Part shown: positions 8,610 through 15,286 of the stretch, one piece after another
How positions within the stretch are numbered: position 1 is the stretch's first letter
How the letters are laid out: each line of letters starts with the position of its first letter
Assembly: GCA_035701845.1 (NCBI GenBank)
Contig: DASSRJ010000170.1
Span: 9,175 to 73,174 of the forward strand
DNA: 64,000 nucleotides
Direction of reading: 5' to 3'
Source of the DNA: Pseudolabrys sp.
GTDB lineage: Bacteria > Pseudomonadota > Alphaproteobacteria > Rhizobiales > Xanthobacteraceae
The notes under the pieces: model-generated
Seen by the model: only the letters and a program-made list of their open reading frames with translations
The model's database searches: none
Told to the model about the DNA's origin: nothing
Position numbers and translations under genes: made by a program

Positions 8610-8798
8610 ATGGAACTGTCCCGCGATATCGCAAAGTTTGCGCGCTCGCGTCCTGTGATTGAGTGCGCACAGTGCGGTGAGCGCATCTACATTCCTGAAT
8701 GGTCTGAATGCCTCGACGGGAGCCGCGTGCGTCATCTGTGGCAATGCGACGCGTGCGGCACCTCTTTCGAGACGACGGTGCGCATAGCGGCGGCGTAA
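8610..8798 (+). CDS. Small zinc-ribbon protein (62 aa)
   Basis: Strong SD GGGAGGAAGG; CAQC...CDAC Cys pairs with PEWSE and RHLW. Confidence 0.75.
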   Translation: MELSRDIAKFARSRPVIECAQCGERIYIPEWSECLDGSRVRHLWQCDACGTSFETTVRIAAA

Positions 8799-8869
8799 AT
8801 GCCGCCGAGCGCCCGAATTTCACGGAGTTTTGCGCAGCAGGCCGAATGTCGGCACGCTATAGTGTCGGC

Positions 8870-9436
8870 ATGATTGACCGCAGACATTTCATTGCACTCG
8901 CCGCCATCCCCCTCACCCTCGGTGTCCGCCCCGCTCGTGCAACCGCTATGAGCCGCGTGACCGCCTACGCCTTCACATTCAAAGGCCTGGATGGGGACGA
9001 TATCCTGCTCTCATCCTATGCCGGTCACCCTTTGCTGGTGGTCAATACGGCGTCGCAATGCGGCTATACCCCCCAATATGCTGGCCTCCAGCAAATCTGG
9101 ACGCGCTACCGCGACCGCGGATTGATCGTGCTGGGCGTGCCGTCGAACGACTTCGGCGGACAGGAGCCGGGCGGCAAAAACGAGATCCACGCGACCGCGC
9201 AGGGGACGTACCACGTCACATTCCCAGTGACCGAAAAGGTCGCCGTGAAGGGCAAGGACGCCCACCCGTTCTACAGGTGGGTGGCGGCCGACCATCCGCG
9301 CGAGGCCCCTCGCTGGAATTTTCACAAATACCTCATCGCACGCGATGGCCAATTGAAGGCGGCCTTCCCCTCGGCGGTCGAGCCAACGGACCCGCTCGTG
9401 ATCGCCGCCATCGAGCAGGTCCTGGCAGACGCATAG
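8870..9436 (+). CDS. Glutathione peroxidase family protein with Tat signal
   Basis: MIDRRHFI signal; NTASQCGYTPQY, PSNDFGGQEPG and WNFHKYL. Confidence 0.92.
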   Translation: MIDRRHFIALAAIPLTLGVRPARATAMSRVTAYAFTFKGLDGDDILLSSYAGHPLLVVNTASQCGYTPQYAGLQQIWTRYRDRGLIVLGVPSNDFGGQEPGGKNEIHATAQGTYHVTFPVTEKVAVKGKDAHPFYRWVAADHPREAPRWNFHKYLIARDGQLKAAFPSAVEPTDPLVIAAIEQVLADA

Positions 9437-9556
9437 CTCCGGCGAATCGCCGCGCCGCGCGTCGCGCACTCGCCGCCGCGAAACCAAAGCGGCGGAGCCT
9501 GTCAACTTTGGCGAGGCAGGGAGGGAAATCTTCTGTCACAATATTGAAAAATTAGA

Positions 9557-9585
9557 TTGACGAATCGGTGCGCGCATGACGGATT
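9557..9585 (+). promoter_or_regulatory. Orphan housekeeping-type promoter between convergent genes
   Basis: TTGACG-N12-CATG, same layout as the aspS upstream element TTGACA-N12-CATG; the -10 is weak. Confidence 0.4.
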
Positions 9586-9591
9586 GTCAGC

Positions 9592-9697
9592 ACGACATTC
9601 GGTCACGTGGGCCGGCGGGTTCAATCGCCGACCCGTAAAGAGGTTCCTCCCGCGTGGCGTTTTAACTGGGCGGCCGCAAGGCCGCCCCTTTTCATTT
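9592..9697 (+). ncRNA. Candidate small RNA with anti-SD-like GUUCCUCCC motif
   Basis: Promoter-like element upstream, stem CACGTGGG/CCCGCGTG enclosing an inner hairpin, strong terminator, no plausible ORF; 5' end is estimated. Confidence 0.5.
9668..9697 (+). terminator. Rho-independent terminator
   Basis: GGGCGGCC-GCAA-GGCCGCCC followed by CTTTTCATTT. Confidence 0.85.
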
Positions 9698-9718
9698 CAG
9701 CAAATCGTCGGCAAGTGG

Positions 9719-11338
9719 CTAGGCGGACGCAGCCATGCGCTCGGCGCCGCCAAATTCAAATGCGGCCGATTGCAGCGGGTCGAGGGCTTCCACGAGCTGC
9801 AGGAACGAGCTTCCGGGCAAAGGCGGCGCGAAGACGTAACCCTGCGCCGACCGCACGCCCAGCGTCCGCAAATGCATGACCTGCTCGAAATTCTCGACGC
9901 CCTCCGCAACGACATCCATGCGCATGTTGCGTGCGAGGTCGACAAGCGTCTCGACGATGGTCGTTGAATTCCGATCGGTACCGATGGCGTCGACGAACAT
10001 CTTGTCAATCTTGATGATGTCGACGCCGAGTTTGAGCATGTAGGAAAGACCGCTGTGGCCGGTGCCCACGTCGTCGATCGCAATACGAACGCCGAGGCCT
10101 TGCAGTGCTGCGATCGTCCGGCGGGTTTCTGTGAAGTTCTCGATCGGATCGCGCTCGGTGACTTCAAGAACGACCTGGGAGAATTTTATCGGCGAATCCA
10201 CGAAGATGTTGCGAACGTCCTTGACGATCGATGGCTTGCTGAAAAGTTTTCCCGCAAAGTTGAATGAAATCCTCAGGTCTGGACGCCGCCCCAGTGCCGG
10301 GCCGACCTCCGTGGAGGCTTTCCGCATCAGACGGCGCGTCAGATCGTCGATGAGGTCGCTCGATTCCATCAGTGGGATAAATGCGCCCGGCAGGACCAAA
10401 GTGCCATCCGATTTGCGCCAACGAACCAGGACCTCAGCCCCCCGCAATTGACCGGAACGGATGTCGACGACGGGTTGGTAGTACGGGATGAATTCGCCCG
10501 CTTCGAGCGCACGTTCGATTTCGGCCACCGGGTTACGGGGGGCGCGGCGTGGAACCAACACCACAAATCCCGTGACGGTCATCATGATGACACCGGCCGC
10601 AAAAAGACCGAACCATTTGAGGTCGGCGTGCTCCGCCTCGATCCGCGCCCGCGGATTGAGAACCTCGACATCAAAGCCGAACTTGTTCGACCTTATTTCG
10701 GCACTGAAATTTCCGCTCTCGCTGTCGGCTGTCCGCGCGCCGACCTCTCCGATCTCTGCGCCTTGTACGGTCACGATGCGTGCGTAGCCGCTGAAAGGCC
10801 CGCCACGCGTCGACACCTGCGGCAAAAACAATACCGTCGGCACGAGAGCGCTGATGGCGTTCGCGGCGGAGCCGACATCTCGTCGCAAGCGCACCATTCG
10901 CTCGCCGCCCGGCAGAGATATGATGTCCAGACGATACCCGCCGGCGCCGACCAATGGCTCGGACGAGATCACGTCCCGCTCGCCTGGAGGCAAGCCGAGA
11001 TGATTGCAAAGCGTCCTGCCGTCGGGGCCGATGATGGCGATTTCCTTGACAGGAATCGTATTAAAGGCGGCGCGGCGCATCGCCTCCATGTCGTGCTGAT
11101 CGCAGGAGCTGACGCCCGCCAAAGCCAGGGTGTCGAGCGTTCCGACCGCATCCCGGACGCGCGCCTCGGCAAGTGCGATTGCGCGCTTGGCGGCCGTGCT
11201 TACCTCCGACTGGCCTTGCCGCTCTATGAGATTGTCGAGCCAGAGGTTAAAGGCGATGAACGGACCACCGGCGAGCACGGCGCCGACGATAATCGCAAAT
11301 AAATTCCGGCGCGTAACGGCGCGCACAAAAAACCCCAT
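9719..11338 (-). CDS. Membrane-bound EAL c-di-GMP phosphodiesterase with two-Cys (CSS-type) periplasmic sensor
   Basis: Two TM segments flank a domain with exactly two Cys 32 aa apart; EVL, ISFN, LEVTE, DDVGTGHS, IKID, EGVE and QGY catalytic motifs are present. Confidence 0.9.
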   Translation of the reverse strand: MGFFVRAVTRRNLFAIIVGAVLAGGPFIAFNLWLDNLIERQGQSEVSTAAKRAIALAEARVRDAVGTLDTLALAGVSSCDQHDMEAMRRAAFNTIPVKEIAIIGPDGRTLCNHLGLPPGERDVISSEPLVGAGGYRLDIISLPGGERMVRLRRDVGSAANAISALVPTVLFLPQVSTRGGPFSGYARIVTVQGAEIGEVGARTADSESGNFSAEIRSNKFGFDVEVLNPRARIEAEHADLKWFGLFAAGVIMMTVTGFVVLVPRRAPRNPVAEIERALEAGEFIPYYQPVVDIRSGQLRGAEVLVRWRKSDGTLVLPGAFIPLMESSDLIDDLTRRLMRKASTEVGPALGRRPDLRISFNFAGKLFSKPSIVKDVRNIFVDSPIKFSQVVLEVTERDPIENFTETRRTIAALQGLGVRIAIDDVGTGHSGLSYMLKLGVDIIKIDKMFVDAIGTDRNSTTIVETLVDLARNMRMDVVAEGVENFEQVMHLRTLGVRSAQGYVFAPPLPGSSFLQLVEALDPLQSAAFEFGGAERMAASA

Positions 11339-11393
11339 CCCGCCTCCAGCCAGGGGCCCCGTCCTGGTGCCTCTCCAGTCAGCCATGCCGCCG

Positions 11394-15257: not shown

Positions 15258-15286
15258 AAAAGCGCATGAGGGGTCGATTTTGTCAA
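15258..15286 (-). promoter_or_regulatory. Putative aspS promoter
   Basis: Consensus TTGACA -35 on the minus strand; -10 is poorly defined. Confidence 0.45.

Follow-up and report, generated by a model that had tools for sequence, protein, structure and literature searches.

Between gpx, which codes for a glutathione peroxidase, and a convergent gene coding for a CSS-motif EAL protein, the genome of a Pseudolabrys species contains a gap of 282 bp (9437–9718) that an earlier note on this DNA proposed to be the seat of a small RNA (sRNA). The note pointed to a TTGACG-N12-CATG element, which is present at 9557–9578, to a stem CACGTGGG (9604–9611)/CCCGCGTG (9649–9656) around CGGCG (9613–9617) and CGCCG (9626–9630), to the CU-rich motif GTTCCTCCC, present at 9643–9651, and to a + strand terminator about 230 nt past the gpx stop, which begins 232 nt after this stop. 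All of these features sit where they had been placed. The question that the locus raises is whether they belong to an RNA gene in its own right and, if so, to which kind of RNA and with which role.

We give a probability of roughly 0.6 to the reading that 9592–9697 of the + strand is the gene of a trans-acting regulatory sRNA of about 104 nt, belonging to a family that is undescribed. Pseudolabrys, Rhodoplanes and their kin are widespread in metagenomes and are represented here mostly by uncultured metagenome-assembled genomes (MAGs), and literature searches found no riboregulator for Pseudolabrys, Rhodoplanes or their relatives. The element would provide these soil genera with a first well-defined sRNA family, for which a covariance model, an invariant core of 20 nt and a clear candidate seed are at hand. 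Table 1 lists the features of the locus by their positions in the window, i.e., the whole stretch of 64,000 nt that was analyzed.

Table 1. Features of the gpx-EAL locus. Decimal scores are mean majority fractions among 30 orthologs of the genus.
Feature	Position	Strand	Remarks
gpx (glutathione peroxidase)	8708–9436	+	PF00255
Putative upstream promoter element: GTCACA (9535–9540) and A-tract GAAAAATTAGA (9546–9556)	9535–9556	+	Mean 0.70, against 0.49 further upstream
Predicted −35 box TTGACG	9557–9562	+	TTGACGAATC 0.99 in genus
Predicted extended −10: TG (9577–9578), one base, CGGATT (9580–9585)	9577–9585	+	17-bp spacer after −35
Predicted sRNA, ~104–106 nt	9592–9697	+	Predicted start at ~9590–9593; 3′ end in U-tract
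Closing stem P1′, 5′ strand GTCACGT	9602–9608	+	Pairs with GCGTGGC (9652–9658)
Inner hairpin P2′: GGGCCGGC (9609–9616), variable loop (9617–9626), GCCGACCC (9627–9634)	9609–9634	+	Covariation
Junction with seed: GTAAAGAGGTTCCTCCC; anti-Shine-Dalgarno motif UUCCUCCC at 9644–9651	9635–9651	+	Single-stranded in the covariation-supported fold
Invariant core GGTTCCTCCCGCGTGGCGTT	9642–9661	+	1.00 in 30 genus orthologs; spans seed and P1′ 3′ strand
Rho-independent terminator: 8-bp G+C stem, GCAA loop, then CUUUUCAUUU	9668–9697	+	Terminator scan
CSS-motif EAL gene, convergent	9719–11386	−	PF00563 and PF12792

Conservation and Distribution

Comparison of 30 oriented orthologs from the genus delimits a conservation island with sharp edges at 9535–9697. 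Scored as the mean majority fraction per region, the upstream flank reaches 0.49 and the downstream flank 0.44, and conservation stays at background level from the gpx stop to 9534. Within the island, the score is 0.70 for GTCACA and the A-tract, 0.99 for the TTGACGAATC of the −35 box, 0.62 for the spacer, 0.83 for the −10 region and 0.52 for the leader; it then rises to 0.86–0.87 for the stem strands, drops to 0.43 in the hairpin loop, and reaches 1.00 in the core (9642–9661) and 0.96 in the terminator.

By DNA search, the stretch is single-copy in 32–33 of 37 Pseudolabrys genomes, with 74–91% identity, and it was found in none of the 24 other families of the order in a search of relatives. 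A covariance model of the transcript (R1) scores 119 bits at 9592–9697, detects one copy in the genome of origin, and, of the 62 genera sampled within Xanthobacteraceae, gives strong matches (36–119 bits) in 12; in the remaining genera, weaker matches are mostly partial and below about 30 bits, and those inspected cover little beyond the terminator. The exact core occurs in at least 119 genome records in a pattern scan of named records, the named carriers among the matches listed being Pseudolabrys, Pseudorhodoplanes, Rhodoplanes and Xanthobacteraceae MAGs, and in at least 120 metagenome contigs, all of them longer than 1 kb. Matches of a broader model (R2) outside the family were rejected as look-alikes of 31–39 bits that are devoid of the core.

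A lack of conservation had been named in the earlier note as one outcome that would speak against an sRNA; what emerges is conservation across the genus and in 12 of the 62 family genera. It is this conservation, rather than the single sequence, that lifts the observation above chance. The promoter-like element, the RNA body and the terminator are one conserved unit set between unconserved flanks, and this unit is kept in Pseudolabrys and at least 11 further genera of Xanthobacteraceae despite changes in the neighboring genes.

Within the genus, gpx lies upstream of the predicted sRNA in about 26 of 30 loci, and 28 of 30 have the EAL gene in convergent orientation on the downstream side. In other genera, the EAL gene is downstream in about 10 of 27 loci, and gpx is absent upstream, where it is replaced by a different, co-oriented gene coding for a protein of 187 aa. 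This protein (e.g., L038:847-1410, + strand), which ends in ...LTVWRR, is without a Pfam match and without a homolog in the genome of the window. In many genomes, the sRNA and the EAL gene are set apart by a DoxX-like gene together with a small one that is Cys/Trp-rich, an arrangement that is frequent in the other genera. A small secreted-looking protein with the end ...GYYWYxDGCWxRRRDGSYxRVxxxxC is encoded at this position in many genomes (L038:2228-2575, − strand; Pseudolabrys loci L005, L006, L022, L024, and L027), and is missing between the sRNA and the EAL gene of the window. A search for tRNA and tmRNA genes found none.

Promoter-Like Element and Terminator

The upstream part of the island has the layout of a housekeeping-type promoter, composed of an A-tract, TTGACG, a 17-bp spacer and TG-n-CGGATT, from which transcription would start near 9592, i.e., 6–8 nt past the −10 hexamer. 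All 30 genus orthologs share the letters TTGAC, the TG and the last T of the hexamer without exception. The position of 9535–9556 suits an UP element, and this stretch may act as one; an A-rich stretch occupies the equivalent place in other genera. Family-wide, (T/G)TGACG is kept at an unchanged distance from the RNA body, and the other genera present the motif GTGACGAATC-N4-CGAATCAG followed by a TTTTAT-like −10. A consensus sigma-70 scan of 9300–9900 called no promoter because CGGATT is without the canonical A at position 2.

The earlier note had likened this layout to the region upstream of aspS. A TTGACA-N12-CATG sequence does lie upstream of the 597-aa open reading frame that the note called aspS (15265–15286, − strand), and its TG stands at the same distance from the −35 as in the putative sRNA promoter. 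The loose pattern occurs 3 times in the window for 2.35 expected, i.e., at chance frequency, so the resemblance to aspS amounts to a shared ordinary promoter type only. The shared position of the TG suggests that this organism makes frequent use of extended −10 promoters. A promoter regulon was also sought: genome patterns of TTGACGAATC and TTGAC-N14-16-TGACG yield no recognizable set of genes.

At the other end of the unit, the terminator reads GGGCGGCC-GCAA-GGCCGCCC (9668–9687), then CTTTTCATTT up to 9697; in the alignment, 99.6% of its cells are paired, and two of its pairs show compensatory changes. Between the gpx stop and 9556, there is no intrinsic terminator and no unusually stable structure (z −0.36), and the terminator of the sRNA is therefore the first one after gpx. 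Since no terminator separates gpx from the element, read-through transcripts from gpx are also likely. These observations make room for another reading, in which the element is a 3′-UTR module of the upstream gene, here gpx, the RNA arises by read-through and processing, the hairpin is the terminator of the gene, and the box is no promoter. Such a module would agree with the upstream gene being co-oriented in the genus as well as in other genera, and with the silence of the sigma-70 scan. On the other hand, the upstream gene varies (gpx or the unrelated 187-aa gene) and yet the TGACG box, the A-tract and their spacing are kept, which speaks for a promoter and against a passive 3′ UTR; conservation is at background between the gpx stop and 9534, and the canonically spaced TG and final T of the −10 show no variation. 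We regard a 3′-UTR module as unlikely; a mixed form of it, in which an sRNA embedded in the 3′ UTR has its own internal promoter, is also possible. The proposal of a stand-alone sRNA of about 105 nt is thus the one that agrees best with a conserved unit that is independent of the upstream gene and contains covarying pairs.

The proximity of the convergent gene raises a further alternative, that of an element acting in cis-antisense, or as a bidirectional terminator, for the gene on the opposite strand, here the EAL gene, whose read-through transcripts would pair perfectly with the sRNA. A distance of 22 nt separates the EAL stop from the terminator's end, the convergent gene of another genus likewise ends about 12–25 nt from it, and the EAL gene is downstream in most loci of the genus and in over a third of those of other genera (see above). 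Yet past the hairpin the minus strand reads AGUUAAAA, which makes a poor U-tract; the DoxX-like and Cys/Trp-rich genes intervene before the EAL gene in many genomes; and the conserved promoter, the seed and the inner hairpin would all be left unexplained. We consider this alternative very improbable, and the suggestion of the earlier note that the RNA could run antisense to the EAL gene is disfavored because other genes intervene between the two in so many genomes.

Predicted Structure of the RNA and Its Putative CU-Rich Seed

The putative + strand transcript folds at −51.1 kcal/mol (z −3.57 relative to shuffled sequences). The minus strand also folds better than its shuffles (z −3.44); folding energy therefore cannot identify the transcribed strand. 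The pattern of substitutions is more informative. In the RNAalifold structure applied to 100 homologs (A3), 95.6% of cells are paired, within an overall range of 91.6–95.6%, and 10 pairs are changed on both sides, a count that was reached by none of 500 shuffles and lies well above slid controls; these counts come from mutually related sequences whose alignment had been fitted to the model. The covariation check that the earlier note had called for in orthologs thus has a positive outcome for the inner hairpin and for the terminator, the latter with two compensatory pairs.

In the inner hairpin P2′, two-sided changes affect seven of the eight pairs, and the C.A mismatch of this species is replaced by U-A in 16 sequences and by C-G in 18, while the sequence and the length of the loop vary freely. 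The closing stem P1′ evolves differently: its central four pairs form in 87–92 of 94 distinct sequences (summed per-pair counts), its two outermost pairs in 63 and 74 of 94, and nearly all changes are one-sided because the 3′ strand is invariant. Compensatory changes that seemed to support the stem P1 were rejected, as they came from L052 and L056, divergent members of doubtful alignment where the real core is CCUCCUCCCGG, and are treated as alignment artefacts.

Two folds of near-equal energy compete for the seed. In the fold supported by covariation, GGG at 9609–9611 pairs with CCC at 9632–9634 and so lengthens the inner hairpin, GUCACGU/GCGUGGC closes the structure, and GUAAAGAGGUUCCUCCC stays unpaired as the junction. 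In RNAalifold and in the minimum-energy fold, GUCACGUGGG pairs with CCCGCGUGGC and the last CCC of the seed is buried; in this species, the minimum-energy fold pairs this CCC with GGG at 9609–9611, which involves about half of the seed. With this competition, access to the seed would come at a cost of a few kcal/mol: the predicted price of opening all 8 nt is 5.5 kcal/mol in this species and 3.4–8.4 kcal/mol in orthologs, and in some orthologs the seed-open form is already the minimum-energy fold.

The core is invariant over 17–20 nt across genera, longer than a seed requires, and UUCCUCCCGCGUGGCGU is kept in nearly all strong matches of the family. Part of this invariance arises because the constraints on the seed and on the P1′ strand overlap. 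It does not resemble that of a coding sequence, given that the core varies at none of its codon positions and the indels in the leader and loop are not multiples of 3. A small open reading frame (9576–9638, 20 codons) was rejected, since its frame is not kept in orthologs and indels break the frames. With covarying structure and without a conserved open reading frame, the predicted transcript is non-coding, and the alignments make the locus a well-supported candidate for a non-coding RNA gene.

Relationship to Known sRNA Families

The earlier note could not assign the sRNA to a family, and the comparison with Rfam leads to the same outcome: a scan against 4227 families at gathering threshold came back empty for the window as well as for 18 homologous loci. 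A permissive scan of 9400–9760 (E ≤ 10) returned chance-level matches only. RF00519 (suhB/MmgR), with 13.1 bits and E = 4 at 9642–9702, for a threshold of 41 bits, was the only sRNA family to match weakly over the seed; BjrC1505 was absent both from the E ≤ 10 list for 9400–9760 and from the scans at gathering score. Literature searches by sequence and by organism found no description of the element.

The most pertinent comparison is with MmgR (alpha-r8), as the same genome contains a true member of this family (G000:C154:2282-2358, − strand; L061) that scores 70.9 bits with RF00519, carries GUUUCCUCCCUAGACUU, and has a promoter that differs from that of the predicted sRNA. The existence of this separate gene indicates that the gpx-EAL sRNA is not MmgR. 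Both RNAs are short and combine a 5′ hairpin, a UUCCUCCC-type motif, an ACU-containing linker and a G+C-rich Rho-independent terminator, and the anti-Shine-Dalgarno (anti-SD) motif of MmgR was proposed to do the targeting (PMC7143759). Unlike MmgR, the gpx-EAL sRNA has its motif followed by the invariant GCGUGGCGU, which is part of the closing stem, and it occupies a different genomic neighborhood. By their sequences, at least two distinct genes for putative CU-rich sRNAs are present in this genome, so the CU-rich anti-SD design would be represented by at least one more independent family beside MmgR.

AbcR1 and AbcR2 (alpha-r15) also present a CU-rich anti-SD motif in an unpaired region, and the best predicted sites of the gpx-EAL sRNA, like their targets, fall in mRNAs of transporter binding proteins. 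AbcR RNAs have two anti-SD motifs and three stem-loops and adjoin the LysR-type gene lsrB (PMC7143759), whereas the gpx-EAL sRNA has a single CCUCCC motif, neighbors gpx and the EAL gene, and has no Rfam match to this family at E ≤ 10. NfeR1 (alpha-r14) and the cuckoo RNAs share with it a CCUCC-type anti-SD motif, a sigma-70-type promoter (predicted in the case of the sRNA) and a terminator. In alpha-r14, each of the three hairpins exposes the motif unpaired in its loop, and the genes are often multicopy (PMC7143759); the gpx-EAL sRNA is instead single-copy, with a single motif in the internal-loop junction between P2′ and P1′, and again has no Rfam match. A few divergent members of its own family (L056, L058) carry CCUCCUCCC. 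In kind, the new family would belong to the CU-rich trans-acting sRNAs of Alphaproteobacteria.

The cell-cycle sRNAs EcpR1 and GspR of Sinorhizobium offer a lead only, by way of GANTC sites in the promoter, DnaA boxes in a sister clade and the presence of the core in the ctrA 3′ UTR. The gpx-EAL sRNA has no sequence or Rfam similarity to either, and EcpR1 pairs with its targets via a GC-rich stem-loop, not through an anti-SD motif (PMC7143759).

Proposed Mode of Action and Candidate Targets

As we picture it, the closing stem GUCACGU/GCGUGGC would fold around the hairpin GGGCCGGC/GCCGACCC and thereby display GAGGUUCCUCCC on the 3′ side of the internal loop, where this CU-rich stretch could pair with the GGAGG-type ribosome-binding sites of several mRNAs and block the initiation of their translation. 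The stretch of the sRNA expected to engage its targets is GGUUCCUCCCGCG. This mode of action is the one proposed or shown for AbcR, NfeR1, and MmgR; AbcR1, AbcR2 and NfeR1 silence transporter mRNAs through unpaired CU-rich anti-SD motifs (PMC7143759). By analogy with these RNAs, anti-SD silencing is the best candidate for the mechanism, at about even odds.

The motif UUCCUCCC is complementary to GGGAGGAA. In the start regions of its own genome, the longest complementarity to the seed is found mostly in genes coding for transporter binding proteins (DctP, Peripla_BP_6 twice, TctC, and NMT1) and for ABC ATPases, with FixP, acylphosphatase and acs also among the best. Genes for transporter binding proteins are the target class reported for AbcR and NfeR1 (PMC7143759), and their enrichment here may just reflect strong ribosome-binding sites. 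The TRAP binding-protein gene DctP was rejected as a target, as its complementarity beyond a plain Shine-Dalgarno sequence is lost in orthologs; the gene itself is present in only about a third of the genomes of the genus. The acs gene was likewise set aside: its start region pairs no better where the sRNA is present than where it is absent, and complementarity beyond the plain Shine-Dalgarno sequence is not kept in acs orthologs. The start regions of the EAL gene and of gpx offer nothing complementary beyond a plain Shine-Dalgarno sequence, and a search of the genome for a long complementary site found none.

These outcomes could also be read in favor of an RNA that binds a protein or acts as a decoy, with the core being the site of an RNA-binding protein, or mimicking or competing with another carrier of the motif, e.g., the 3′ UTR of ctrA. 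The core, invariant over 17–20 nt across genera, exceeds usual seeds; a long complementary site is missing, and neither of the two targets examined keeps its complementarity; apart from the sRNA, C[CT]CCCGCGTGGCG occurs just once in the genome, as a same-sense copy with 19 of 20 nt in the ctrA 3′ UTR, and the related UUCCCCCGCGUUGCG is found in the ctrA 3′ UTR of several sister genomes. Against this, no candidate protein is known, the overlap of the seed with P1′ explains part of the invariance, and the CU-rich motif and the layout of the RNA fit known pairing sRNAs. A decoy or protein-binding role thus appears rather unlikely to us, and a pairing sRNA with an anti-SD seed remains the preferred reading.

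GANTC Sites, DnaA Boxes and the ctrA 3′ UTR

GANTC is the site methylated by CcrM. One such site, GAATC at 9562–9566, overlaps the −35 box, and GANTC occurs in the promoter or leader of 95% of 219 distinct homologs, at 1.21 per 90 nt compared with 0.15 in the flanks; this frequency expresses conservation and not independent enrichment, because the sequences are homologous. The site recurs one to three times in the 90 nt that precede the RNA body, mostly as GAATC in the promoter, and the variants GATTC, GAGTC, and GACTC are also found in the leader. In a Rhodoplanes-like clade, DnaA boxes (TTATCCACA or one mismatch) cover the −10/+1 region and recur about 75 bp before it, at about −75 and −150 nt from the core (L034, L036, L038, L073, L109, L123, L124, and L079); none was found in the Pseudolabrys loci. 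A nearby replication origin was rejected for this genome, as the window shows no GC-skew switch and Pseudolabrys has no DnaA boxes at the locus.

Taken with the core copy in the 3′ UTR of ctrA, the gene for the master regulator of the cell cycle, the GANTC sites over the −35 and spacer and the DnaA boxes of the sister clade could point to a cell-cycle-coupled riboregulator, a reading that we deem quite unlikely. If it were true, transcription of the sRNA would be tied to replication and methylation state, and a single partner would be shared by, or contested between, the sRNA and the ctrA 3′ UTR; were these promoter features and the ctrA look-alike functional, riboregulation of the nutrient-uptake type would be linked to the cell cycle. 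Whatever the regulation of the sRNA, it is possible that it and the ctrA 3′ UTR have a common partner, either a protein or an RNA.

The ctrA copy lies at G000:C135:29184-29300 (− strand; L188) and reads UUCCCCCCGCGUGGCGUUUG. It appears as an opposite-strand match in the search for complementary targets because it is a same-sense copy, and the ctrA 3′ UTR, the only near-perfect match of that search, was for this reason discarded as a long complementary target. The motif is followed there by a hairpin, CUCUCCUAUCC and a strong terminator; the part composed of the hairpin, CUCUCCUCCC and the terminator scores 29 bits with RF00519, and the ctrA 3′ UTR may, from these features, give rise to a 3′-UTR-derived MmgR-like sRNA. 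Several sister genomes keep UUCCCCCGCGUUGCG ... GAGCC-loop-GGCUCUCUCCUCCCAACUCAA and a terminator in the 3′ UTR of their ctrA gene.
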